A stretch of DNA of 64,000 nt from Alphaproteobacteria bacterium (GTDB lineage Bacteria; Pseudomonadota; Alphaproteobacteria; Rickettsiales; SXRF01). Positions 3,898 to 58,500 of this stretch are shown piece by piece. Positions within the stretch are counted from its first letter, which is position 1; every line of letters starts with the position of its first letter. The notes beneath the pieces were generated by a model. That model had not been told where the DNA came from and searched no databases. It saw nothing but the letters and a program-made list of their open reading frames with translations. The DNA lies in assembly GCA_033763575.1 (NCBI GenBank), contig JANRKF010000013.1, forward strand, positions 81,396-145,395. Reading direction: 5' to 3'. Made by a program: the position numbers and the translations under genes.

Positions 3898-4057
3898 CCC
3901 TCCCCCCTTGAGGGGGAGGGAAGGGTGGGGGGTGGCGGAATAAATGAGAAACTGAAATAGGTAGCAACCACCCCTCCCCCAACCCCTCCCTCAAGGGGAG
4001 GGGGATATCTATAAAATACAACAAGATAATTATAACACCCCCCACCCCCCCGCCACC
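3898..4057. repeat. Composite nested palindromic repeat (family 1, CCCTCCCC-N4-GGGGAGGG hairpins)
   Basis: Hairpins ccctccccccttgagggggaggg (3898-3920) and cccctccctcaaggggagggg (3983-4004). gggtggggggtggcgg (3923-3938) is inverted at 4038-4057. Internal segments resemble the elements at 21824-21958 and 38966-39126. Confidence 0.7.
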
Positions 4058-4080
4058 TTCACATAACCGACACGCAATCT

Positions 4081-4122
4081 TCATCAAACTGTAACACACA
4101 AACGCTATTATTTTGCTATATT
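4081..4122 (+). promoter_or_regulatory. Shared promoter-like block, copy A (AAAC-TGTAACACAC...TATTAT)
   Basis: tcatcaaactgtaacacacaaacgctattatt is about 85% identical to 6870-6903. A TATTAT box lies 16 nt after the TGT, about 100 nt upstream of ATG 4189. Confidence 0.45.
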
Positions 4123-4188
4123 GGATTTTAAGTAAGGCAGGAGCAACCACCCCCTGCAGGTAACAACACTAGAAACGAGGAGAACGTT

Positions 4189-5595
4189 ATGGCTATATCA
4201 GCAGAAGAACTTGCAGCCTTATTTGAAAAAGGGCTTGGCAAAAAATCATTCGCCAAAATTATGGAAGCGGCGGTGGAAAACTCCACGCTGCTCGATTCAC
4301 TGACCGGCGCCCAAGAAGCTGCACTCAAGAAATTTGCTTCTAAGAATCCCGCTGCCGCCGCTGAAGCCTTTGGCAAACTCGCCGAAAGCCAAGCACGTAC
4401 TGCACTTGCAGAAGAACTTGGCGTAGACCCCGCAGCCGCTAAAAAAGAGGTAGACTGGGATTTAACACGCAAACCACGTGAATTTGAAGAAGCCATGACC
4501 GAGAGATACAAACGCATGGGCATCAAGAATTTTGCCGATGACATGGGCTTTGACAAGGAGAGCTTCGACGAGTCGGTTGGAAAACACGTCCGTATCACCG
4601 AAGACAAATATGGTGATGCCAAGGTCGAGCTTCGTAGAAAATCTGCCTTGGATGACATCAAGGGTGAGATTGACAAGTTACATCGGGATAAAGAGCGCCT
4701 GCTGGAGCGCGATCCATCAAAAACCAAGGAAATTGGCGCAATTGACAAGAAGCTTGAGGTGCTCGGTAAAAAAGCGCAGCGGGAAATTTATGACGCTCGC
4801 GAAAGTATCGATAAATACGCAAAGGGCCTTGATGATGCTCATGCGAAAAAAATGTATAAATTGGAAGATCGCCAACGTGAGATCACCGATGCTCTCGACT
4901 CTATCGACCACAAAGGCAAAAGAGGCGCTCGTAAAATCATTCTGGATGAAGAGCTGAAAAAATCCCTGTTGATTGAAACCGACCATGGACAATATCGCAT
5001 CGATGAAGATGGGGTAAGTTTGGCGGGTAGAAATAAATCTGGCAAGGCGGTTGAAGTAAAGGATTTAAAAGAGGGTCAAATCAAAGGCATTCGAGAAAAA
5101 GCCATAGAGCGTGTTGAACAGCGCTATGACGCTATCAGAGATGCTGCAAAAGAACGGCATGAGGTCGTACAAAAACACCTGACCAGCGCCTCTGAACATA
5201 TAAACGGCGAGATAAAAACAGAAGTCAGCACCAAAACCGGTATGGGCGAATGGACGGGTAAAACCGCTTCCAAGGTCACTCCGGGTGGGGTGCAGGCCGC
5301 CTCCAAAGGCATCATGACCGAAGTAGAATACGAAAAACTCAGCCCCACCGAGAAATTTGGCGCCAAAACCAAGGCGGTATTCAAAAGCGGCCCGATGGGC
5401 ATGGTGCAGACTGGCCTGATGGCGCTCGGCGGTATCGACGGTTTCCGCCGCATCATCGAGGGCGGCAGCGACATCATGTCGGGTGATCCTGAACGCCAGA
5501 ATGGCTGGAGCAAAGTCTTCATCGGCGTGCCGGAAGTGGCCGTTGCCGGATGGATCGGCCAGATGGGCGGGCGCAACAAAGTGCTCGGCGTATAA
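4189..5595 (+). CDS. Hypothetical K/E-rich coiled-coil protein with Gly-rich hydrophobic C-terminus (orphan)
   Basis: 468-aa ORF with GAGGAGAACGTTATG initiation context. Long charged helical repeats, then a C-terminal GPMGMVQTGLMALGGIDG...VAVAGWIGQMGG hydrophobic segment. No family recognised. Confidence 0.6.
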   Translation: MAISAEELAALFEKGLGKKSFAKIMEAAVENSTLLDSLTGAQEAALKKFASKNPAAAAEAFGKLAESQARTALAEELGVDPAAAKKEVDWDLTRKPREFEEAMTERYKRMGIKNFADDMGFDKESFDESVGKHVRITEDKYGDAKVELRRKSALDDIKGEIDKLHRDKERLLERDPSKTKEIGAIDKKLEVLGKKAQREIYDARESIDKYAKGLDDAHAKKMYKLEDRQREITDALDSIDHKGKRGARKIILDEELKKSLLIETDHGQYRIDEDGVSLAGRNKSGKAVEVKDLKEGQIKGIREKAIERVEQRYDAIRDAAKERHEVVQKHLTSASEHINGEIKTEVSTKTGMGEWTGKTASKVTPGGVQAASKGIMTEVEYEKLSPTEKFGAKTKAVFKSGPMGMVQTGLMALGGIDGFRRIIEGGSDIMSGDPERQNGWSKVFIGVPEVAVAGWIGQMGGRNKVLGV

Positions 5596-5617
5596 ATACT
5601 CCTTTAAAGTTTTTCCC

Positions 5618-5655
5618 ACCCCCCGCTAAACCCATGGTTTGCGGGGGTTTTCTTT
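5618..5655 (+). terminator. Rho-independent terminator
   Basis: accccccgc-taaacccatggtt-tgcgggggt stem-loop followed by a TTTTCTTT run, 23 nt after the stop at 5595. Confidence 0.6.
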
Positions 5656-5904
5656 GCCTTTTCGCCCGCCGCGCTGGCGGGGCAGAAACCCGTTTACACA
5701 TGCATTTTAGAATGTTAGACTGGTAGTTCGTCTTTATGCAATTTCCTGTATATTTCCCGCTGCGGCGAGAAAAATGCAAGGAATGCCGGAGCAGAGAAAC
5801 GCAAATGTAGATGGGCTACATGCGGATTCGAGCACCGCCATGACGCGGCAGTTTTCCGCCGCAGACAGGGAAAGACCAGGAAATTCCGAAGGGGGGTTAC
5901 TGTT

Positions 5905-6108
5905 TTGGTTGAAGTTGTAGTTCGTGATAATAACGTTGATCAGGCTCTGCGCGCATTGAAAAAGAAAATGCAGCGCGAGGGGCTTTTCCGCGAGATGAAA
6001 ATGCGCCGTCACTATGAAAAACCTTCCGAAGCCCGCGTTCGCGAGGCGGCGGAATCACAGCGTCGTGCCCGCAAGCTCGCCCGCAAGAATACCGATAAGA
6101 ACGACTAA
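5905..6108 (+). CDS. rpsU: 30S ribosomal protein S21
   Basis: (TTG start) [46 protein letters not shown]... is the canonical S21 sequence. Confidence 0.9.
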
Positions 6109-6151
6109 AGCCCCGCACTTGTTGCGGGGTCTGGTCTTCTTATAAGGCATT

Positions 6152-6185
6152 AAAAAACCCACCGTATCGAACGGTGGGTTTTTTT
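6152..6185. terminator. Bidirectional rho-independent terminator between convergent rpsU and ssb
   Basis: aaaaaacccaccgt-atcga-acggtgggtttttt: a perfect 8-bp GC-rich stem flanked by an A-run and a T-run. Confidence 0.75.
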
Positions 6186-6218
6186 GTAGCCGGACCCCGC
6201 AATAAATGCGGGGCTTGG

Positions 6219-14736: not shown

Positions 14737-15492
14737 ATGACCGAAACCCTTGAATCACTTCTGAACATGCTGTGCAAAACGGTGGCCAGGAGCCAGCAGA
14801 ACGCCCAGCAAACCGTGTATACGCTCACCGACGGGAAAGACGCCAAGCTGGCCTACGATCTGCTGGTGGCGTGCAATGCCGACGTCAAATATTTCGCCGA
14901 TGCAAATGCCGGAAATAAGCTCTATGTGCAGAATGCCTCGCTTGCCGCCTGCGCCGATAAAATCGCCGCTATTCTTGGCTCCGCCACCCTGTTTAAGCAG
15001 ATCAAAAACCTGCTCGACAGCACTGAAAATGCCGGAAACTATAGCCTCTCCTTCATCAACACCGCGCATGGCCGCCAGCTGACGCTGCTGTTGCCGCCGG
15101 AGAAATCGACGGCAAGCAACGCTCCTGCAGCGAAATCCGCCGCGCCGGAAGCCACCCAATCCCCCGTCATGACCTCCCCTCGGCCAAAAACACCAGTACT
15201 GCCCAAAGATGAGGATGCCCTGCTCGCCGGCCCTACGGTCGCCCGCAAAGCCATCCCAAAAAGCTTTAAAGCCAGTGCCACCGAGGAAGACCCGCTGAGA
15301 ACGCGCATCATGCTCTACTTAAGCAGCCGCGTTTTCACCAGCACAGCCTGGACCATGTTCGCATTGCTGATCCTCGCCGTGATTTTCAGCATCATCATCA
15401 CCATACGCGGCTTCCTCTGCCCGGATATCGCAGGCGTGCAGAATGTTCCGGCTTATTGCCCCCGTAAAATCGCCCCACAACAACAGGAATAG
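14737..15492 (+). CDS. Hypothetical tail-anchored membrane protein (orphan)
   Basis: 251-aa ORF with a single C-terminal TM (WTMFALLILAVIFSIIITI). Its stop lies 1 nt before the aroA ATG. No family recognised. Confidence 0.5.
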   Translation: MTETLESLLNMLCKTVARSQQNAQQTVYTLTDGKDAKLAYDLLVACNADVKYFADANAGNKLYVQNASLAACADKIAAILGSATLFKQIKNLLDSTENAGNYSLSFINTAHGRQLTLLLPPEKSTASNAPAAKSAAPEATQSPVMTSPRPKTPVLPKDEDALLAGPTVARKAIPKSFKASATEEDPLRTRIMLYLSSRVFTSTAWTMFALLILAVIFSIIITIRGFLCPDIAGVQNVPAYCPRKIAPQQQE

Positions 15493-15493
15493 C

Positions 15494-17470
15494 ATGACCG
15501 CCACTTCTTCCGCCTCCCAGCCCCTTTGCGGCGACGTGCATGTCGCGGGCGACAAATCCATCTCGCACCGCGCGCTGATGCTGGCCTCGCAGGCGCTCGG
15601 GCTCACCACCATCTCCGGCCTGCTCGAAGGCGAAGACGTGATGAATACCGCCGCCGCGCTCAAAAGCATGGGAGTAAATATCGAGAAAAATGGTAGCCAG
15701 TGGCGCGTCGAAGGCGTGGGCATCGGCGGCCTGCAGGAACCGCAGGGCGTGCTGGATATGGGCAATTCCGGCACCAGCACCCGCCTGCTGATGGGCCTCG
15801 TCACCCCCTACCCGTTCACCAGCTTCTTCACCGGCGACGATTCGCTGCGTTCGCGGCCGATGGCCCGCGTCATCACCCCGCTGGAGCAGGTCGGCGCGCA
15901 AATCACCACCCATAGCGGCGGCAGGCTGCCGCTTTCGGTGAAGGGCACCGACACCCCCAACGCCATCAGCTACACGCTGCCGGTGGCCTCGGCACAGGTG
16001 AAATCGGCGATTATCCTCGCCGCGCTCAATACACCCGGCACCACCACCGTCATCGAACCGCATGCCACCCGTGACCACACCGAAAACATGTTGGAATATT
16101 TCGATATCCCCATCACGCGTGGGCAGACCAAAGACGGCACCAACATCACCCTGACCGGACGGCCAAAACAAACCGCAAAAAATCGCGACATCGAAGTGCC
16201 GGGCGATCCCTCCTCCGCTGCGTTCCTGCTGGTGGCGGCGCTGATCGTGCCCGGATCGAATGTCATCGTGCGCAATATCTGCATGAACCCGCTGCGCACC
16301 GGCCTGTTTACAACCTTAAAGGAAATGGGCGCGGATCTTTCCTACGAGAATGAACGCACGCTCGGCGGCGAAAAACTGGCGGATATCCGGGTGCGTTATA
16401 GCGCGCTGAAGGCGGTAAATGTGCCCGCCGAACGCGCGCCCTCCATGATCGATGAATACCCAATATTGGCGGTGGCGGCGGCCTTTGCCAAGGGCGAGAG
16501 CGTAATGCACGGGCTTTCCGAACTGCGGGTGAAGGAAAGCGACCGGCTGAATGCCATCACCGAAAGCCTCACCGGCTGCGGTGTTACCGCCCGCGCCGAG
16601 GGCGATACGCTTTATGTCACCGGCGGGGTGCCCAAGGGCGGCACCACCATCGCCACCCGCCTCGACCACCGCATCGCCATGTCATTCCTGGTGATGGGTA
16701 TGGCGAGCAAAGAACCCGTCATCATCGACGATGCCAGCGCCATCAACACCAGCTTCCCGAATTTCATATCGCTGATGAACGGGCTGGGCGCCTCGATTGC
16801 CACCGACCGAGTACCGAGTACCGAGTACCGGGTACCGCTAGTCATCACCATCGACGGCCCCGCCGCCTCCGGCAAAGGCACCCTCGCCCGCCGCCTCGCC
16901 GAGCATTTCGGCATGGCCTATCTCGATACCGGCAGCCTGTATCGCGCCGTCGGGCTGAAACTGGTCTATAGCGACAAGGACCCGAACGACAAGGAAGCCG
17001 CGCTCAAAGCCGCCCGCTCCATCGATACCAATGATTTAAGCAACCCCCGCCTGCGGCAGGAACGTATCGGGAAAGCGGCATCCATCGTTTCCGCCTTCCC
17101 GGAAGTGCGGCAGGCGCTGCTCGATTACCAGCGGGAATTTGCTAAGACCCCCAACGGCGCGGTGCTCGATGGCCGGGATATCGGCACGGTGGTCTGCCCC
17201 GACGCGCCGATCAAATTCTTCATCACCGCCACCTTGTTCGCCCGCGCCAAGCGCCGTCACCGGGAGCTTTCCGGCGAAGGAATAGAGGTGGTGTTCGATT
17301 CGGTGCTGGAAGACCTGCGCGAGCGTGACGAACGCGACCAGAACCGCGCAGCCGCGCCGTTAGTACCCGCCGACGATGCGATTATCATCGATTCCTCCGC
17401 CGCCGACGCCAGCGAGATTTTCCAGCGGGCGCGGGAAATCGTGGAACTCCGGAAAGTCAGCGCTTCTTAG
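15494..17470 (+). CDS. aroA: Fused 3-phosphoshikimate 1-carboxyvinyltransferase / cytidylate kinase
   Basis: N-terminal ~437 aa is EPSP synthase (GDKSISHRALMLA, LDMGNSGTSTRLL, KESDRL, DHRIAMSF). After the linker RVPSTEYRVP comes a full Cmk (ITIDGPAASGKGTLARRLA...DGRDIGTVV...RDERD). One uninterrupted frame. Confidence 0.85.
   Translation: MTATSSASQPLCGDVHVAGDKSISHRALMLASQALGLTTISGLLEGEDVMNTAAALKSMGVNIEKNGSQWRVEGVGIGGLQEPQGVLDMGNSGTSTRLLMGLVTPYPFTSFFTGDDSLRSRPMARVITPLEQVGAQITTHSGGRLPLSVKGTDTPNAISYTLPVASAQVKSAIILAALNTPGTTTVIEPHATRDHTENMLEYFDIPITRGQTKDGTNITLTGRPKQTAKNRDIEVPGDPSSAAFLLVAALIVPGSNVIVRNICMNPLRTGLFTTLKEMGADLSYENERTLGGEKLADIRVRYSALKAVNVPAERAPSMIDEYPILAVAAAFAKGESVMHGLSELRVKESDRLNAITESLTGCGVTARAEGDTLYVTGGVPKGGTTIATRLDHRIAMSFLVMGMASKEPVIIDDASAINTSFPNFISLMNGLGASIATDRVPSTEYRVPLVITIDGPAASGKGTLARRLAEHFGMAYLDTGSLYRAVGLKLVYSDKDPNDKEAALKAARSIDTNDLSNPRLRQERIGKAASIVSAFPEVRQALLDYQREFAKTPNGAVLDGRDIGTVVCPDAPIKFFITATLFARAKRRHRELSGEGIEVVFDSVLEDLRERDERDQNRAAAPLVPADDAIIIDSSAADASEIFQRAREIVELRKVSAS
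16807..16837 (+). repeat. Heptanucleotide tandem repeat (ccgagta x3, ccgggta, ccg) at the aroA-cmk junction
   Basis: ccgagtaccgagtaccgagtaccgggtaccg read directly. It encodes the linker PSTEYRVP. Confidence 0.85.
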
Positions 17471-46246: not shown

Positions 46247-46323
46247 TGGCGTGCCCGGAGGGATTCGAACCCCCGACCTGCAGCTTAGAAGGCTGCCGCT
46301 CTATCCAACTGAGCTACGGGCAC
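46247..46323 (-). tRNA. tRNA-Arg (anticodon TCT)
   Basis: Reverse complement gtgcccgtagctcagttggatagagcggcagccttctaagctgcaggtcgggggttcgaatccctccgggcacgcca folds as a cloverleaf. Anticodon loop is cTTCTaa, CCA is encoded. Confidence 0.9.
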
Positions 46324-46502: not shown

Positions 46503-46579
<77 letters not shown>

Positions 46580-51546: not shown

Positions 51547-51640
51547 AATGGTTGCCAGGTTTCTGGGTTGCTAGGTTTCTTGGTAAGGATTACATTGCTA
51601 CACCTAGCAACCTAGAAACTCAGCAACCCAGCAACCACCT
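51547..51640. repeat. Family-3 palindromic element (ggttgc/aggtttc arms)
   Basis: ggttgccaggtttctgggttgctaggtttcttggt - loop - acctagcaacctagaaactcagcaacccagcaacc (imperfect ~35-bp arms). Confidence 0.7.
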
Positions 51641-51644
51641 TCCG

Positions 51645-52409
51645 ATGACCCTCAATGATTTCCTTGTCTCCGAAATATTCACCTTCCTGCTGATTTTCTG
51701 CCGGGTGGGCACGGCGTTGATGATTCTTCCCGGTTTCGGCGAAGCATTTGTGAGTGCGCGTGTGCGGCTGCTGCTGGCGCTGATGTTTAGCCTGGTGCTC
51801 ACCCCGGCGCTGCCCGATTTCCCCGCCCCGCCCAGCCACGTATTCACGCTGATGACCATCATGATGGCGGAAATTCTCACCGGTATTTTCTTCGGGATGC
51901 TGGGCCGCCTGATGCTGGCTGCGATCAGCACCGCCGGTATGATCATCGCCTACCAGGCCGGGCTGGCCTCGGCGCTGGTGCAGGACGTAACGATTGCCGG
52001 CGGCCAGGCCTCCAGCCTCGGCAACCTGCTCGGCATCACCGCGATGGCGCTGCTGTTCGCCACCAACATGCATCATCTGATGTTGCAGGCGCTGATGGAC
52101 AGCTACCAGATTTTCCCGGTCGGGCAGTTTCCGAATGTCGAGGATTTCACCTGGCAGGCGGCGAAGATCGTGAACAGCTCGTTCCTGATTTCGCTGCAGA
52201 TCGCCGCCCCCCATATCGTCATTGGGCTGGTGGTCTATCTCGCGGGCGGTATCACCGGGCGGCTGATGCCGAGCCTGCAGGTGTTTTTCATCCTGCTGCC
52301 GCCGCAGCTAATACTCAGCTTTTTCGTGCTGATGGTGGCGTGGAGCAGCATTATGATGTGGTATATGGATTATTTCCGCGACGGCATCTCACAGTTTGTG
52401 GGGCAGTAA
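51645..52409 (+). CDS. fliR: Flagellar type III export protein FliR
   Basis: MTLNDFLVSEIFTFLLIFCRVGTALMILPGFGE... with multiple TMs. The upstream part of the track ORF is repeat sequence. Confidence 0.85.
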   Translation: MTLNDFLVSEIFTFLLIFCRVGTALMILPGFGEAFVSARVRLLLALMFSLVLTPALPDFPAPPSHVFTLMTIMMAEILTGIFFGMLGRLMLAAISTAGMIIAYQAGLASALVQDVTIAGGQASSLGNLLGITAMALLFATNMHHLMLQALMDSYQIFPVGQFPNVEDFTWQAAKIVNSSFLISLQIAAPHIVIGLVVYLAGGITGRLMPSLQVFFILLPPQLILSFFVLMVAWSSIMMWYMDYFRDGISQFVGQ

Positions 52410-52411
52410 AG

Positions 52412-52500
52412 GAGTCTTGGTTGCTAGGTTGCTTAGTCTCTTGGTAAGCAATCAGAAACCAGGTAACATAGAGACCAAGTAACCTAGAGACCTAGAAACC
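52412..52500. repeat. Family-3 palindromic element
   Basis: gtcttggttgctaggttgcttagtctcttggt - loop - accaggtaacatagagaccaagtaacctagagacctagaaac. Confidence 0.65.
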
Positions 52501-52509
52501 GAGATATAC

Positions 52510-53586
52510 ATGGCTGAGGGCGGAGATCAGGATAAGGACCAGAAGACCGAAGAACCAACCTCCAAGAAATTGCAGGAGGCGTTCGAGAAAGGTAATGTGC
52601 CGTTCTCGCGGGAGCTGGGGCACTTCCTCATGCTGTTTCTGCTGGCCTTAATCATCGCGAATTATTCACCCGGCATATTGCGCGACACCCGCAACCTGCT
52701 CGAACATTACATTCTCAATGTCGACACCATCGCCGTCGATAAAACCGGGGTGAGCATCATCTTGCGCGATCTGGCCTTCGGCGGGATCATGGTGTTGGCG
52801 GTGCCGCTGATCGGCTCGGTGATCGTGGCGCTCGCCGCCGGATTCTTGCAAAACGGCATCGTGATTTCCGCCGAAAGCATCAAGCCGAAATTCAGCAAAA
52901 TATCGCCGGTGGCGGGGCTTAAAAAGATTTTCTCGATGCGCACCCTGGTCGAGTTTATCAAAAATATCGTCAAGATCAGCATCGTGAGCATCGTCGCCTT
53001 CATGGCGGTGTACCCGGAGCTTTCGCACCTGAGAGAACTCTCCAACCACAGCGCCGAAGGTATTCTGCTGTTCCTCGCCAAGCTCGCCACGCAGGTGGCA
53101 ACGGGTGTGGCCATCGCCATGTTTTTCATCGCGCTGTTCGATCTGGTCTATCAACGATTGCACCACATGAAATCGCTGCGCATGACCAAGCAGGAAATCA
53201 AAGACGAATATAAGCAGAGCGAGGGCGATCCGATCATCAAGCAACGGCTGCGGGCGCTCCGGCAGGAAAAAGCCAAGCAGCGCATGATGGGACAGGTGCC
53301 GAAATCCGATGTGGTGATTACCAACCCGACCCACTTCGCCATCGCGCTTTCCTATCGGCCCAAGGAGCATAAAGCGCCGGTGGTGGTGGCCAAGGGGCAG
53401 GATCTGATAGCGCTGAAAATCAAGGAAGTGGCGGAGGAACATGATATACCGGTGATACAGAATCCGCCGCTCGCCCGTGCGCTATTCGCATCCGCCGAGC
53501 TGGAGGAGGAAATCCCGCTCGTCCACTATGAAGCAGTGGCGAAAATCATCTCCTACGTCTATAAGCTGAAGGGTCGGCGGATGTAG
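52510..53586 (+). CDS. flhB: Flagellar type III export protein FlhB
   Basis: ...DKDQKTEEPTSKKLQEAFEKGNVPFSRELG..., 4 TMs, ...VVITNPTHFAIAL (NPTH autocleavage site). Confidence 0.9.
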   Translation: MAEGGDQDKDQKTEEPTSKKLQEAFEKGNVPFSRELGHFLMLFLLALIIANYSPGILRDTRNLLEHYILNVDTIAVDKTGVSIILRDLAFGGIMVLAVPLIGSVIVALAAGFLQNGIVISAESIKPKFSKISPVAGLKKIFSMRTLVEFIKNIVKISIVSIVAFMAVYPELSHLRELSNHSAEGILLFLAKLATQVATGVAIAMFFIALFDLVYQRLHHMKSLRMTKQEIKDEYKQSEGDPIIKQRLRALRQEKAKQRMMGQVPKSDVVITNPTHFAIALSYRPKEHKAPVVVAKGQDLIALKIKEVAEEHDIPVIQNPPLARALFASAELEEEIPLVHYEAVAKIISYVYKLKGRRM

Positions 53587-53589
53587 TGG

Positions 53590-55044
53590 TTAGCTAAGGA
53601 AACGTCCGCCATTATCCATGGGAATGCCCGGCACTTGAACGCCATCCGGGTTCGTATCCATCTTTGTTGCACCCTGCCCCTTAAAATTCACGGCGTTGGC
53701 CGCCAGTGCTTTCACATCCGTGTCCAGGGGGTCATTGGAAGCGGTGAACTGTTCATATTTTATCTGAGCAAAATGATCTTGCAGCGCCCTCTGGCTATTA
53801 TCACCGGGATATATAACCCTTTTGTTCATTCTCTCTATCTGCGCATCCGACAACTGCATACCCTCCGGCAATTGCATGGAGAAGCGCCCCGGATATTCCT
53901 CCACCGGCCTTAATTTATTGCTGACTTTACCAACATGCACCAGCGGCTTGCCATTAATCACCGGCGCACCCAGCACTACCGTACGAGTTGCTTCATCCCA
54001 GCCGACGATGTGCAGCTTCGGTGGCGGAGCAAAGAACGGGCTGTTAAGTGCAGTGCCGGTATTCGTCATCACATCAGGATTTTCAAGCGCTTCGCTGGCA
54101 GCCTGATAAGATGCATGATGACGCTGTGTGACCGAATGCATCGCATGCTCGTAACGCGCCGCGCGGTCTGCCGGCGCAAGGGGGCTGCTAAAACCCGCCC
54201 CCGAATCCTGGTAGCTGGTCATGCCCATACGGTCGCGCTGGTTAAGTATCTCCATTTTTCTTGCACGTTCCAACCACACATTGCCGCCGGGATTGCTGCG
54301 CGCCCAACCACGGAGTTTTTCCTGTTCCAAATCTTCACGCAACCCCGGCAGCGTATCGTGATTGGTTAGTCGCGCCATTACCCGTGGATCATGGATATCA
54401 TGTCCGTGATACTGCGTGCCGGTCAGGTGCGAAGTGCTGGCGCGCAGGGCGACATTACGTTCCATTTCCTCAAGCCTAAGTTCCGATTCGATATTTTGCC
54501 GGAAACCACTGACGGCACGATTGATTCGGACGCGATCAGGATTTTCCTCTCTCGTGGCGGGGAAATTTCCGCCTTGCGCAACGGCATCCAGCTCCGGCTC
54601 AGTGATGGCATTTTTTTCCACCACTTGCAAAAGCTTGCCCCAGCAAGCTGCGCGTTGCATGCCGTGATCCGCCGCCGCCGTGTGCTCGGCGTCAAGATAT
54701 TGCGAGCGCTCACGACGCATTGGATTGAAATCGGCAAAAATATTTTCTTCCGGCAATTGCGGCATGGCGCCTTTTTCACGCGTCGCCCACTGCTCCTCCG
54801 CCTGCTGCGCGCCCTGCATATCCGCCATTAATTTATTGAACGCCGCCTGCGACATCATGCTGATTTTCTGCTCCTGCTCGGCGTCCTCAAAACGACGTGT
54901 TTCTTTGGAATCCGGGGAATAAACGGCGGGGAACACTGTGGCATAGCGTAGCGCCCCGCCCTGTTTCATATCCATAGCGAATTTATGCACGGTGACGTCA
55001 CCGTCATCTCCCGCGACCGCAATGTTGAACATCACTTCATTCAT
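53590..55044 (-). CDS. Hypothetical 484-aa protein (orphan, effector-like)
   Basis: Long ORF with GGAGAGGTTATG context and the shared promoter-like block upstream. No TM or signal peptide, and no family recognised. Confidence 0.6.
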   Translation of the reverse strand: MNEVMFNIAVAGDDGDVTVHKFAMDMKQGGALRYATVFPAVYSPDSKETRRFEDAEQEQKISMMSQAAFNKLMADMQGAQQAEEQWATREKGAMPQLPEENIFADFNPMRRERSQYLDAEHTAAADHGMQRAACWGKLLQVVEKNAITEPELDAVAQGGNFPATREENPDRVRINRAVSGFRQNIESELRLEEMERNVALRASTSHLTGTQYHGHDIHDPRVMARLTNHDTLPGLREDLEQEKLRGWARSNPGGNVWLERARKMEILNQRDRMGMTSYQDSGAGFSSPLAPADRAARYEHAMHSVTQRHHASYQAASEALENPDVMTNTGTALNSPFFAPPPKLHIVGWDEATRTVVLGAPVINGKPLVHVGKVSNKLRPVEEYPGRFSMQLPEGMQLSDAQIERMNKRVIYPGDNSQRALQDHFAQIKYEQFTASNDPLDTDVKALAANAVNFKGQGATKMDTNPDGVQVPGIPMDNGGRFLS

Positions 55045-55129: not shown

Positions 55130-55264
55130 TATTGTGTGATGACCCGCCACATTCCGGGCGGAATTAGAGAAAAAACAGAGAATTCAGCCGGTTGTTAATA
55201 TATTTTCTGCGCAGAAACCAAAAAACCAGTTGTATCCGGGGCGTGATTTCCTTAAAGATTAGGC

Positions 55265-56281
55265 ATGGCAACACGTTACATTGACATGGGGTTGGATGCG
55301 ACGGGGGCGCGGGATTTCGTCGTCCGCAGCCGCGTGCCAAGCTTCACCCAGATCCTCATCATCTTTGCCAGCGCCTTTTTGATTGCCGTCAGCATCACCG
55401 TATCGGTGCATGACGTGGTGCAGCTCATCGTCACGCTGCTCGCCCTTTTCGCCATCCTTGGCTGGTATATCATCATCCAGCTCATGCGCAGCCGCGACAT
55501 GCTGCTGGTCACCGAATTCCAGAACGCGCTCTTTGCCTCGGCGATGGGGCTGCACAACAAATTCTGCCTCATCATCAAGCGCGACGGCTTCATCGTCTAT
55601 CTCGACCGCTCGTTCCAGCGCCTGTTTCCGGAGATCGTCCAAAGCTCCACCCGCACGGTGGATATGCTGCTGCGCCACGGGAAAGTGGACCAGATAGACT
55701 GCGACCGCGTGCTTTCCGCGCTGGATAAAGGCACCTACGAAAAAGTTATTTTCGACATCACCGACGCGCAGGGCGTTGTGCATCACATCGTCCTTTCGGT
55801 AGAGCCGATCATGCGGCCCGCCGGGTTCACCATGCTGCGCGGGCGGGAATATATCGAAGACCGTAATAGCAATTTTGCCGGAGGCGGCGGCGCGGGCATG
55901 TTCAGCAAATCGTCGGTTACGTTGTTTTCGCACGTGATGGAAAGCATGAAAATGGGCGTCTATATCAGCTCGCCCAACGGCAGCCTGGTCTATTGCAATC
56001 CGCTGTTGGAAGAATGGCTGGGCTATGGCGAAGGCGAGGTCATCACCCGCAACCTGAACGTCGATCACCTCATCCCGGCGGGGCGCAATCCCGGCATGTC
56101 CGCCGAACCGGCCGATTTCGAGGGCACGGTGCAGCTCGAGAAAAAAGTCGGCGGATTCCTCAAGGCCTTCCTCAACCAGCGTGCGATTCATAACGAGTCC
56201 GGGCAGCTGATGGGCTGCACCGCCGTGGTGCATCTCTACAACGACGATAATCCGCTGGACGAGACGCCGAAGGGGTTCTAG
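55265..56281 (+). CDS. CckA-like N-terminal module (2 TM + PAS-like region), ended by an in-frame TAG
   Basis: TMs FTQILIIFASAFLIAVSITVSV and LIVTLLALFAILGWYIIIQLM, then PAS-like segments. It is in the same reading frame as 56291..57847, separated only by TAG plus 3 codons. Confidence 0.6.
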   Translation: MATRYIDMGLDATGARDFVVRSRVPSFTQILIIFASAFLIAVSITVSVHDVVQLIVTLLALFAILGWYIIIQLMRSRDMLLVTEFQNALFASAMGLHNKFCLIIKRDGFIVYLDRSFQRLFPEIVQSSTRTVDMLLRHGKVDQIDCDRVLSALDKGTYEKVIFDITDAQGVVHHIVLSVEPIMRPAGFTMLRGREYIEDRNSNFAGGGGAGMFSKSSVTLFSHVMESMKMGVYISSPNGSLVYCNPLLEEWLGYGEGEVITRNLNVDHLIPAGRNPGMSAEPADFEGTVQLEKKVGGFLKAFLNQRAIHNESGQLMGCTAVVHLYNDDNPLDETPKGF

Positions 56282-56290
56282 CAAGGTATC

Positions 56291-57847
56291 ATGACACAAC
56301 CGACCGATAATATTCTCGACCAGTTCATCGCCCGTTCGCCGATCCCGATGACACTCATCGACCGCGCAGGCGCGCTGCTTTTCGGCAACGAGGCGTTCCA
56401 CATCCTGACCCAGCAAACGCTCGCGGGCAGCCTGCCGGTCTATATGGAAACGCTCTTCACCAAAGAGAAAATGGCGGAGGCGAAGCAGCAGCTCACACAG
56501 TTCATCACCGGGCAGATGTCCGAGGAGCCAGTGGTGTTCGAACTGCACCTGCCGAACAATGTCGAGATGATCGTGTCCTGTTATGCCAGCCCGTTCAGCG
56601 ATGAGCATATATTGCTGCACCTCATCAACATTACCGAGCAGAAACAGCTGGAGCTGCGCTTCGCCCACTCACAGAAAATGCAGGCGGTGGGCCAGCTTGC
56701 GGGCGGCGTCGCGCATGATTTCAACAACCTGCTCACAGCCATGATCGGCTTTTGCGACCTGCTGCTGATGCGTCACCCGGCGGGCGACCAGTCGTTCGCC
56801 GACATCATGCAGATCAAGCAGAATGCCAACCGTGCAGCGAACCTCGTGCGGCAGCTGCTCGCCTTCTCGCGCCGGCAGACCTTGCAGCCGAAAATTCTTG
56901 AGTTGACCGATGTGCTGGCCGAGCTTTCAAACCTCGTGCGGCGGCTCATCGGTGAGAATATCGAGCTGAAAATGTTCTATGGTCGCGACATCAGCAACAT
57001 CCGCGCCGACCAGGGGCAGCTCGAGCAGGTGCTCATCAACCTCGCGGTGAATGCGCGTGACGCGATGAAGGGCGGTGGCACGCTCACCATCCGCACCTCG
57101 CAGGTCACCATCGGCAAAGACCATGTCCTGCCCGCCAATGTCATCGCCCCGTCCGACGAGGACACCAAATTACCGGCAGGCGAATATGTGCTGGTCGAGG
57201 TGATTGATACCGGCACCGGCATACCGAGACATATTATCCAAAAAATCTTCGAGCCGTTCTTTTCCACCAAGGAAGTCGGCTCCGGCACCGGCCTTGGGCT
57301 CTCCACCGTTTACGGCATCATCAAGCAGAGCGGCGGCTATGTATTTGTCGAAAGCACCGAAGATGTCGGCACTAATTTCCAGCTTTATTTCCCCGCCGTA
57401 AGCGCCGAGGAAGAAGCTGCCGCCAAAGCGCAGGAACAGGAAGTGGTGCAGAAGGAAACGCATCAGGATTTAACCGGCGACTGCACGATCCTGCTGGTGG
57501 AAGACGAGATGCCGGTACGCACATTCGCGGCGCGGGCGCTTTCCAACAAAGGCTATAAAATTATCGAGGCCGATTGCGCGGAAACCGCACTGGAACTCAT
57601 GGAAGAGCATGGAGGCAAGGTCGAGCTGATCGTCACCGACGTCATCATGCCCGGCATGACCGGCCCATCGATGATCGAAAAAATCATGCCGAAATTCCCG
57701 AACGTGAAAGTGATTTTCATGTCCGGCTACGCCGAAGAGGCCTTCGTCGATAATTACGGCGTGCAGCGCGATTTCAATTTCCTCGCCAAACCGTTCACGC
57801 TCAAGCAACTCGCGAGCAAGGTGAAAGACGTGGCGGGCGGCGGATGA
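56291..57847 (+). CDS. cckA: CckA-type hybrid histidine kinase (PAS-DHp-CA-REC)
   Basis: [32 protein letters not shown]...[12 protein letters not shown]...[22 protein letters not shown]...[18 protein letters not shown], plus a receiver domain (ILLVEDE...DVIMPGM...KPF). This is a close match to the CckA H-box region. Confidence 0.8.
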
Positions 57848-58500
57848 GCTGGCTGGAACCCATCGATATTTATTGCGAGCGGATGGACGCCTCGTTCTTC
57901 GCCGAGCCGCTGAACGCGATTTCCAACGCCGCATTTTTTATCGCCGCCTGGTGCGCCTACTGCCTCTACCGCAAGAGCGGATGCCGGGAAAAAATCCTGC
58001 TGCTGCCGATCATACTCATCGCGCTGGTCGGCACCGGCAGCACGCTGTTTCACACCTTCGCCAACCGCATCACCGAAATGGCGGATGTCATCCCCATCGT
58101 CACCTTCGTGCTGGTCGCCCTGTGGATGCTGCTGCGCCGCCTGCTCGCGTTCACTCTGGCGCAAACCCTGCTGGCGCTCGGTATTTTCGTGCTACTTGCC
58201 TCGCAGACCGGACAAGTGCCGGGTCCGTTCCGCCTGAACGGCTCGATCATGTATGTGCCGTGCCTGCTGATGCTGCTGTTCATCTGGGCGAAGCTGCAAC
58301 TTCGCGCCCACCCCGCCGCCGGCGCCATCCTGCGCGCCGCCGGGATATTCGTCGTGTCGCTCACCTTCCGCAGCGTCGACATGGCGGTGTGCGACGCCCT
58401 GCCCATCGGCACCCACATATTGTGGCACCTGTTAAACGGCGTCGTGCTCTACCTCATCGCCAAAAGTTTGCTGGTTGCAAAAGCACCAAACAACATTTAA
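57844..58500 (+). CDS. Ceramidase-family (alkaline phytoceramidase-like) integral membrane protein
   Basis: About 7 TMs. N-terminus IDIYCERMDASFFAEPLNAISNAAFFIAA resembles bacterial ceramidase-domain proteins. ATGA overlap with cckA. Confidence 0.55.
   Translation: MSWLEPIDIYCERMDASFFAEPLNAISNAAFFIAAWCAYCLYRKSGCREKILLLPIILIALVGTGSTLFHTFANRITEMADVIPIVTFVLVALWMLLRRLLAFTLAQTLLALGIFVLLASQTGQVPGPFRLNGSIMYVPCLLMLLFIWAKLQLRAHPAAGAILRAAGIFVVSLTFRSVDMAVCDALPIGTHILWHLLNGVVLYLIAKSLLVAKAPNNI

Follow-up and report, generated by a model that had tools for sequence, protein, structure and literature searches.

Is cckA broken in this alphaproteobacterial metagenome-assembled genome (MAG), or is it naturally encoded by two genes? 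In Alphaproteobacteria, the CtrA circuit for the cell cycle, motility, and GTA has CckA as its master switch, and to our knowledge this kinase has been studied solely as a single membrane-tethered polypeptide. In the window (the whole 64,000-nucleotide stretch of DNA that was analyzed), two ORFs with CckA-like features share one reading frame and are parted by a TAG codon and nine nucleotides, just as the initial annotation had reported. Their starts are 1026 nucleotides, or 342 codons, apart (56291 − 55265), with a single stop between them. The annotation implied an anomaly of the genome and offered four explanations without choosing among them: a recent nonsense mutation, a genuine two-polypeptide system, stop-codon read-through, or a sequencing error. 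We consider it highly probable that cckA is naturally split at this locus, in a two-gene operon derived from an old gene fission. The two genes and their junction are as follows.

55265 to 56281, forward strand: cckA-N (ORF A), 338 amino acids, MDX2073566.1, from ATG at 55265 to TAG at 56279–56281.
56279 to 56290, forward strand: cckA-N/cckA-C junction, the TAG stop of ORF A followed by the 9-nucleotide spacer CAAGGTATC (56282–56290).
56291 to 57847, forward strand: cckA-C (ORF B), 518 amino acids, MDX2073567.1, predicted soluble PAS-B-DHp-CA-REC hybrid kinase, ending in TGA at 57845–57847.

The NCBI records already list ORF A and ORF B individually, under accession numbers that follow one another. 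Their present names are generic, 'PAS domain-containing protein' and 'ATP-binding protein'.

ORF A had been described as two transmembrane helices followed by a PAS-like region. The helical hairpin and the PAS assignment both stood, with the amendment that the PAS-type domains number two rather than one.

55343 to 55483, forward strand: two predicted transmembrane helices (amino acids ~27–47 and 51–73) joined by a 3-residue loop, without a periplasmic domain (AF2, Kyte-Doolittle).
55553 to 55852, forward strand: first PAS-like domain, amino acids ~97–196 (family alignment, AF2, Foldseek).
55907 to 56239, forward strand: second PAS domain, amino acids ~215–325 (Pfam PAS PF00989, E 2.4e-6 over amino acids 221–265; TIGR00229; AF2).

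The AF2 model of ORF A places helices at amino acids 27–47 and 51–94; Kyte-Doolittle values in 19-residue windows exceed 1.6 over amino acids 32–67, and the hydrophobic hairpin spans amino acids 27–73. The first PAS-like domain is the best-conserved region of the ORF A family, with the motifs EFQNALF, NKFCLIIK, and EPIxRPxGF, and residues 100–195 are modeled as strands and helices at a pLDDT of 82–89. Foldseek matched the model to tandem-PAS proteins, and the predicted fold is a transmembrane hairpin followed by tandem PAS domains. The match of ORF A to the NCBIfam CckA profiles is weak (26 bits, positions 23–155 of the Brucella-type profile). As judged from sequence, ORF A is a stand-alone membrane sensor module, and its homologous, collinear counterpart in full-length CckA is the N-terminal third.

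The assignment of ORF B as a CckA-like PAS-DHp-CA-REC protein was borne out by matches to HisKA, HATPase_c, and Response_reg as well as to the CckA profiles.

56315 to 56650, forward strand: PAS-B-equivalent domain, amino acids ~9–120, beginning with a conserved N-cap, LDQFIxxSPI (NCBIfam profile, alignment with fused forms).
56690 to 56878, forward strand: DHp domain (Pfam HisKA, E 3.7e-10), with the predicted phospho-accepting His142 (CAT, 56714–56716) in the H-box.
57008 to 57397, forward strand: CA domain (Pfam HATPase_c; alignment to 5IDJ and 5IDM), including residues Y, K, and Y, which correspond to Caulobacter Y514, K518, and W523.
57488 to 57823, forward strand: receiver domain, amino acids 400–511 (Pfam Response_reg, E 5.8e-19), with the predicted phospho-accepting Asp450 (GAC, 57638–57640).

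No hydrophobic segment is present in ORF B, where the Kyte-Doolittle value peaks at 1.18. Its amino acids 27–513 align to positions 206–674 of the 678 in the Caulobacter-type NCBIfam profile, with PAS-B immediately preceding DHp. The H-box matches that of Caulobacter CckA in 5IDJ at every residue (E 3.3e-70 over DHp-CA). ORF B scores 592 bits against NF046020 and 493 bits against NF046026; these scores, like that of ORF A, are below the NCBIfam equivalog cut-off of 1000 bits, as is expected because each ORF covers the CckA profile only in part. The c-di-GMP site of Caulobacter CckA comprises G318, R374, Y514, K518, and W523 (PMC5026420). Four of these five residues have identical equivalents at the putative site in ORF B, and W523 is replaced by Y.

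Fused CckAs of 844–869 amino acids occur in more distant relatives (P0229, P0232, L036, and others) and are collinear with ORF A plus ORF B. For example, amino acids 16–323 of ORF A are 31% identical to residues 12–317 of P0229, which has 853 amino acids. In the alignment with fused forms, the TAG falls in a gap-rich, variable linker that connects PAS-B to the second PAS domain and is bounded by the motifs GCTAVVHLY and LDQFIxxSPI.

Relatives of the locus were then compared. A word-indexed search with ORF A returned 119 homologues, every one of them stand-alone (217–373 amino acids) and none of about 860 amino acids. In an exhaustive HMMER search against 1.84 billion representatives, the best 150 clusters included 71 of 300–375 amino acids, 47 of 190–225 amino acids, and 12 of at least 600 amino acids; the first fused protein in this ranking matched ORF A at 35% identity. 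The nearest homologues of ORF B are mostly 510–535 amino acids in length and lie on contigs that also bear ORF A homologues. An exact-match look-up for a contig encoding ORF A gave no hit. Scanning metagenomes with ORF A alone gave no match, and scanning them with an alignment of close relatives gave ten loci, all distant; the closest relatives in the locus set were retrieved individually and not from these scans. The relatives are labeled by their submitters as Rickettsiales, Holosporales, Alphaproteobacteria, or Pseudomonadota MAGs, and the 64-kb window contains no rRNA.

Among the 68 related loci, 59 are split into two genes and nine are fused, so the interruption is no peculiarity of this genome. 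The closest relatives (68–75% identity in ORF A) are split as well, with ORF B in frames 2, 2, 0, 1, and 2 relative to ORF A and with TGA or TAA as the ORF A stop. Over all 59 split loci, ORF B is in frame 0 in 15, +1 in 18, and +2 in 26, and ORF A ends in TAA in 24, TAG in 23, and TGA in 12. Two neighboring genes on the same strand share a frame by chance in one case out of three. Given the spread of frames among the relatives, the common frame of ORF A and ORF B in the window is a coincidence, one of three possible frame relations. The two-gene arrangement extends to relatives with as little as ~25–30% ORF A identity, and on this comparison the split is conserved in a broad clade of uncultured Alphaproteobacteria.

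These data bear directly on a recent nonsense mutation of a full-length cckA, which would have left ORF A, ORF B, or both as decaying pseudogene fragments. Only the bare pattern of a shared frame, a single stop, and a 9-nucleotide gap suggests such an event, together with the point that read-through of the TAG would give back a protein collinear with fused CckA. Against it, the split is found in all close relatives, none of which has an uninterrupted ORF, and with differing frames and stops; ORF A homologues are intact (310–373 amino acids) in more than 100 lineages; and the start ATG and N-cap motif of ORF B are kept across relatives. Furthermore, dN/dS in pairs with unsaturated dS is 0.12–0.22 for ORF A and at most 0.07 for ORF B, values that indicate purifying selection on both. 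The depth of the split and the selection on both halves refute the nonsense-mutation explanation, to which we give next to no credence, and a pseudogene was rejected on the same grounds.

A false stop arising from sequencing or assembly error was worth considering for a sequence that comes from a MAG. The comparison of relatives refutes this explanation too, and it is extremely improbable: two genes are consistently seen in independent assemblies, which come from different projects and sequencing centers (ENA, JGI, NCBI, and Logan). The site also has no homopolymer, and so the usual mechanism of such errors is absent at the TAG.

Programmed recoding would produce fused CckA alongside the split products, by read-through of the TAG in the window or by slippage on A-runs in relatives. 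Only one stop lies between the frames in the window; were it read through, X-Q-G-I would be added within a tolerant linker. In nine of the 59 split relatives, a run of nine or ten A residues lies at most 45 nucleotides upstream of the ORF A stop. This run is the sole A-run of at least eight in the fetched sequence at eight of the nine loci, the remaining one (L018) having three. At all nine of these loci ORF B is out of frame, and at eight of them the ORF B frame stays open across the run. L007, a relative with such an A9 run, lacks a plausible start codon for ORF B in the vicinity of the junction. However, no read-through signal is conserved, and the frame and the identity of the stop vary even in the closest relatives, leaving the proposed stop-codon read-through unsupported. 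The window itself has neither a homopolymer nor an A-run at the junction. The association between A-runs and frame is confounded, because the A-runs fall where ORF A has its conserved KKK(L/I)W C-terminus, which is itself a source of AAA/AAG runs, and because the overlapping start xTGGTAG alone gives frame +2. Slippage on poly-A as the cause of the split was rejected on this confounding, the occurrence of A9–A10 at only 9 of 59 junctions, and its absence from the window. Pyrrolysine or selenocysteine decoding was rejected in view of the presence of all three stops (TAA, TAG, and TGA) at the junctions of relatives. All told, we regard recoding as very unlikely.

Taken together, the comparisons of split, frame, stop, selection, and collinearity argue for an old, conserved fission rather than mutation, error, or recoding. 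Of the four initial options, the genuine two-polypeptide system is the one backed by the comparative evidence, the orthologues in relatives being naturally two genes. The number of fission and refusion events is uncertain from the rough neighbor-joining tree of the loci. In one lineage (L029/P0169), the genes have been re-fused and PAS2 has been lost.

The organization of the split loci is that of a two-gene operon: the genes are on the same strand, adjacent in 59 loci, minimally spaced or overlapping, and collinear with the fused forms. Spacers fall within −7 to +14 nucleotides at 38 of 50 non-redundant junctions, and overlaps such as ATGGTAG, GTGA, and TGATG are frequent. A scan for promoters and terminators found no such site between ORF A and ORF B, and none above shuffle expectation. 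One weak candidate for a ribosome-binding site precedes ORF B.

56283 to 56286, forward strand: AAGG, a weak Shine-Dalgarno candidate for ORF B, 4 nucleotides ahead of the ATG at 56291.

Initiation of ORF B driven by a Shine-Dalgarno sequence is not well supported, since a canonical core precedes ORF B at only 11 of the 50 junctions. A 469-amino acid ORF on the opposite strand (55259–56668, reverse strand) overlaps ORF A and part of ORF B; it is probably a shadow ORF, as it sits within two conserved coding regions under purifying selection.

On the reading of a naturally split cckA, the two genes would be co-transcribed and translationally coupled. ORF B would be the carrier of the CckA-ChpT-CtrA phosphorelay and may have a c-di-GMP-triggered phosphatase switch; neither ChpT nor CtrA was found among the 20 window ORFs (of ~64) scanned against family libraries. 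ORF A, in turn, would act in trans, through contacts between PAS domains, to recruit, concentrate, or activate ORF B at the membrane, so that non-covalent reassembly takes the place of the covalent tether. In Caulobacter CckA, PAS-A serves in polar accumulation and density-dependent activation, and PAS-B in the c-di-GMP response (PMC4853435). The tether that would have been replaced is the source of PAS-A-dependent polar localization and density-dependent kinase activity in that protein.

The two proteins might instead be a pair by descent only, with ORF B acting as a lone soluble CckA and ORF A as a membrane PAS protein in its own right. In solution, the cytoplasmic part of Caulobacter CckA shows kinase activity (PMC4853435), and an ORF A-like, stand-alone paralogue occurs away from any kinase (L032). 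Because such paralogues exist, the N-module may function independently of ORF B; the 190–225-amino acid forms among the best 150 representative clusters and the loss of PAS2 upon re-fusion also fit this alternative. Yet adjacency, common strand, and (near-)overlapping stop and start have been kept in 59 loci over deep divergence, which argues for stoichiometric co-expression of the two proteins. In addition, ORF A has a conserved C-terminal tail that overlaps with the start of ORF B, and PAS-A of Caulobacter CckA is needed for localization and activation by membrane density (PMC4853435). We therefore judge functional separation of the pair to be unlikely, although less so than the preceding alternatives.

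A broader proposal can be put forward tentatively, with somewhat more doubt than confidence. CckA may have been broken repeatedly and stably at one linker, giving a membrane localizer/activator subunit and a soluble kinase subunit, such that kinase activity in a large uncultured clade is set by reversible association in place of a covalent tether. A fused isoform could perhaps also arise as a minority product, through TAG read-through here or A-run slippage in relatives. On the main reading of the locus, a split version that is widespread and selected implies that the covalent tether is dispensable as a link. Split CckA offers a ready-made system for testing how localization or density signals are passed in trans to the kinase core and, if association is indeed reversible, a natural experiment on PAS-A-dependent density and polar sensing. 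In practical terms, genome annotators should not call split cckA loci pseudogenes.

Full-text literature searches for split or soluble CckA found no description of a split CckA. The PAS-B, DHp, CA, and C-terminal REC domains of ORF B resemble those of Caulobacter crescentus and Brucella CckA (NF046026/NF046020; 5IDJ, 5IDM), apart from the Y at the position of Caulobacter W523, and in ORF A, as in full-length CckA, a membrane anchor of two helices with a short loop precedes the PAS sensor domains. Unlike in full-length CckA, the anchor and upstream PAS domains are on a separate polypeptide. PAS-B is preceded by two PAS domains, the number found in the longer Brucella-type CckA, as compared to one in Caulobacter. 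Sensing or localization modules and catalytic modules are also carried on different chains that assemble non-covalently in Rhodobacter sphaeroides CheA3/CheA4 and in chemoreceptor-CheA arrays, which belong to families different from CckA. A parallel within the CckA pathway is the Rhodobacterales DivL that consists solely of its PAS domain (PMC9430884). There, as proposed here, a PAS module of a CckA-pathway kinase is a separate protein that regulates CckA in trans; however, that arrangement reflects domain loss in a partner, whereas the locus described here probably reflects fission of CckA itself.

The stop codon at issue separates two open reading frames, ORF A (cckA-N, the membrane sensor piece) and ORF B (cckA-C, the soluble kinase piece), arranged as follows.

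ORF A: ATG at 55265 to TAG at 56279–56281, + strand, 338 amino acids
Spacer between ORF A and ORF B: 9 bases after the TAG, CAAGGTATC
ORF B: ATG at 56291 to TGA at 57845–57847, + strand, 518 amino acids

Re-reading of the window bore out the initial annotation as to the coordinates, the shared frame (1026 nt, or 342 codons, between starts), and the single TAG plus 9 nt between the ORFs. The two are consecutive NCBI entries on a 176-kb contig of an 'Alphaproteobacteria bacterium' MAG: MDX2073566.1, 'PAS domain-containing protein' (ORF A), and MDX2073567.1, 'ATP-binding protein' (ORF B), the latter starting at the same ATG as used here. Scanning the junction for promoter-like or terminator-like sites gave none between the two ORFs.

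ORF B has HisKA, HATPase_c, and Response_reg domains and aligns with CckA equivalog profiles over positions 350–866 of 868 (592 bits) and 206–674 of 678 (493 bits); its earlier identification as CckA was correct on these grounds. Its match to the DHp-CA region of Caulobacter CckA (5IDJ) has an E value of 3e-70, with an identical H-box. The c-di-GMP site of CckA consists of G318, R374, Y514, K518, and W523 (PMC5026420), and in the alignment the predicted site in ORF B has four of these five residues, with W523 replaced by tyrosine. Hydropathy analysis detected no membrane-grade hydrophobic segment in ORF B. ORF A contains a strongly hydrophobic stretch (amino acids 27–73), has PAS matches in a domain search, and weakly matches a Brucella-type CckA profile (positions 23–155). 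An AlphaFold2 model of ORF A, calculated on a 21-sequence alignment (mean pLDDT 72), predicts the following elements.

Amino acids 27–47 and 51–94: helical hairpin, the second helix extending beyond the membrane
Amino acids 100–195: PAS-like domain
Amino acids 199–224: disordered linker
Amino acids about 215–324: second PAS domain
Amino acids 327–338: disordered tail

A Foldseek search with this model returned tandem-PAS proteins (HIF/ARNT, DosP, LOV-PAS, and FixL).

All 119 ORF A homologues recovered from 5.8 billion clustered proteins, the most distant of them at 31% identity, are short, separately encoded proteins of 309–373 amino acids, except for a few truncated entries of 217–282 amino acids; none has the ~860-amino acid form. 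When 1.84 billion representatives clustered at 50% identity were searched exhaustively with HMMER, 62 clusters reached E ≤1e-30, 48 of them at 300–375 amino acids and 3 at 600 or more. Among the best 150 clusters, 71 were 300–375, 47 were 190–225, and 12 were at least 600 amino acids in length. The ~200-amino acid stand-alone proteins (L032 3947–4558; P0290, P0294, P0297, and others) consist of the TM hairpin and first PAS-like domain only. The one in L032 has no adjoining kinase and comes from the same MAG (SW_3) as the split locus L017; in L041 and L068, the 200-amino acid form lies directly upstream of a kinase gene. The closest ORF B homologues are mostly 510–535 amino acids and share contigs with ORF A homologues, and fused forms of 844–859 amino acids first appear in the ORF B search at about 63–66% identity of the kinase part.

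We fetched 58 loci from GTDB species representatives, 10 metagenomic loci, and 9 loci around the closest relatives, and determined for each where ORF A stops and which frame ORF B uses; the relatives are all MAGs, with imprecise taxonomy. The initial annotation had proposed examining orthologues in related genomes, and these are two adjacent genes in 59 of the 68 loci holding both parts (fused in 9). Among the 59 split loci, the ORF B frame relative to ORF A is 0 in 15, +1 in 18, and +2 in 26, and ORF A ends with TAA in 24, TAG in 23, and TGA in 12. The closest relatives (68–75% identity of ORF A) also differ from the window at the junction.

L069, L070, and L072: 1-nt overlap (TGATG), frame +2
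L073: TAA plus 6 nt, frame 0
L074: TAA plus 19 nt, frame +1
L077: frame +2

Since frames and stops vary even in these, the in-frame TAG is one of three equally ordinary outcomes, with no feature of the TAG conserved. Two explanations raised earlier, a nonsense mutation leaving a pseudogene and a sequencing error creating a false stop, are contradicted by these comparative data and are ruled out. Programmed read-through, also raised earlier, may occur as a minor event in this genome, where a single stop lies between the two frames, but a conserved signal is absent across the relatives. By the Nei-Gojobori method against the closest relatives, dN/dS is 0.12–0.22 for ORF A and ≤0.07 for ORF B where dS is unsaturated; neither ORF is decaying.

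Spacers range from a 7-nt overlap to +14 nt in 38 of the 50 non-redundant junctions, the commonest junction (8 of 50) being the overlap ATGGTAG, GTGGTAG, or TTGGTAG. A canonical SD core occurs at only 11 of the 50, so SD-driven initiation of ORF B is poorly supported. The conserved C-terminus of the ORF A family, KKK(L/I)W followed by the stop, is encoded as AAAAAGAAGCTnTGGTAG, and it may be conserved partly because the same bases hold the overlapping start of ORF B along with a purine-rich leader. In the window's own subclade this tail has been lost: ORF A ends in PKGF, and the 9-nt spacer contains AAGG. In the junction regions of 9 of the 59 split relatives (L001, L005, L006, L007, L013, L018, L035, L053, and L059), an A9–A10 run precedes the ORF A stop by no more than 45 nt; the window has no such run. 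For eight of the nine, this is the sole run of at least 8 A in the fetched sequence (2.4–9 kb). ORF B is out of frame at all nine, and at eight no stop interrupts its frame across the run; at L007, a usable ORF B start near the junction was not found. Such runs could allow transcriptional slippage to a fused isoform, could be homopolymer assembly errors, or could simply come from KKK codons.

Fused CckAs of related MAGs (P0229, 853 amino acids; P0232, 846; L036, L044, L048, and others, 838–869) are collinear with the two ORFs taken together, and amino acids 16–323 of ORF A are 31% identical to residues 12–317 of P0229. The multiple alignment puts the TAG within a linker of about 20–45 residues that is gap-rich and unconserved. 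On one side of this linker is the final strand of the second PAS domain (GCTAVVHLY), on the other the conserved PAS-B N-cap (LDQFIxxSPI). Judged from the sequences, the split is a fission and not a failure of fusion. In a rough tree built from the kinase part by NJ alone, too crude to count events, the window belongs to a crown clade whose members are all split except for L029, with fused forms as its sister group; split and fused forms are mixed in deeper lineages. This pattern suggests that fission or refusion happened more than once. The L029 protein (4001–6190; P0169) is a single 729-amino acid ORF in which the TM and first PAS domain are joined directly to the kinase part and the second PAS domain is absent, an apparent re-fusion with domain loss.

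The two genes lie 9 nt apart, with conserved adjacency and with spacers of the size usual for coupled operon genes. We infer that they would be co-transcribed and translationally coupled, with ORF B predicted to carry the kinase/phosphatase and phosphorelay function of CckA and ORF A probably acting in trans as a membrane anchor and PAS-A-type module. Polar accumulation and density-dependent activation of Caulobacter CckA depend on PAS-A, and its c-di-GMP response requires PAS-B (PMC4853435). Another possible reading is that ORF B functions without ORF A, which would have some other role, as hinted by N-module paralogues standing away from any kinase (L032) and by the many ~200-amino acid forms; against it is the tight, often overlapping linkage kept over deep divergence. 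The cckA pair is followed by a ceramidase-family membrane protein gene (57844–58500, + strand; PF05875, E 1.9e-14), which is probably the third gene of the operon because it overlaps the ORF B stop by ATGA; 12 of 52 related loci have the same gene immediately downstream as well.

Other genes in the window include the following.

15443–17470, + strand: fused aroA-cmk (3-phosphoshikimate 1-carboxyvinyltransferase and cytidylate kinase), a single 675-amino acid ORF
46250–46323, − strand, and 46503–46576, + strand: two divergent tRNA genes, the sole Rfam matches in the window
51552–53586, + strand: fliR and flhB, flagellar export genes upstream of the cckA pair
53590–55044, − strand: 484-amino acid ORF between flhB and cckA-N
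59974–62406, + strand: 810-amino acid ORF

The 484- and 810-amino acid ORFs have no Pfam or NCBIfam match, and the former has no homologue in the 77 related loci. The order flhB, variable gene, cckA-N is preserved in the close relatives L072–L076, with the slot of the 484-amino acid ORF taken in close relatives by unannotated genes of varying size (297–653 amino acids) and strand. At the left edge, an 866-amino acid ORF (28–2628, + strand) matches the GTA baseplate protein 'megatron' (NF048004, 746 bits) in its C-terminal part (profile positions 340–1298). The gene probably extends past this edge because the ORF as listed begins at base 28, in which case the start of the window would cut through the final gene of an RcGTA-like cluster, and the organism probably makes a gene transfer agent. 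[quoted passage not shown]

Full-text literature searching found no description of a split or soluble CckA. Given the modularity of kinases and the existence of split sensors, such an arrangement would not much surprise a specialist, but it amounts to a natural experiment on CckA tethering that is both clean and widespread. Within this pathway, the closest parallel is provided by the PAS-only DivL of Rhodobacterales (PMC9430884). Set against the CckA family, the pair described here is, judged by sequence, a genuine CckA system, but it departs from the single-polypeptide architecture and falls short of the equivalog score cut-off.
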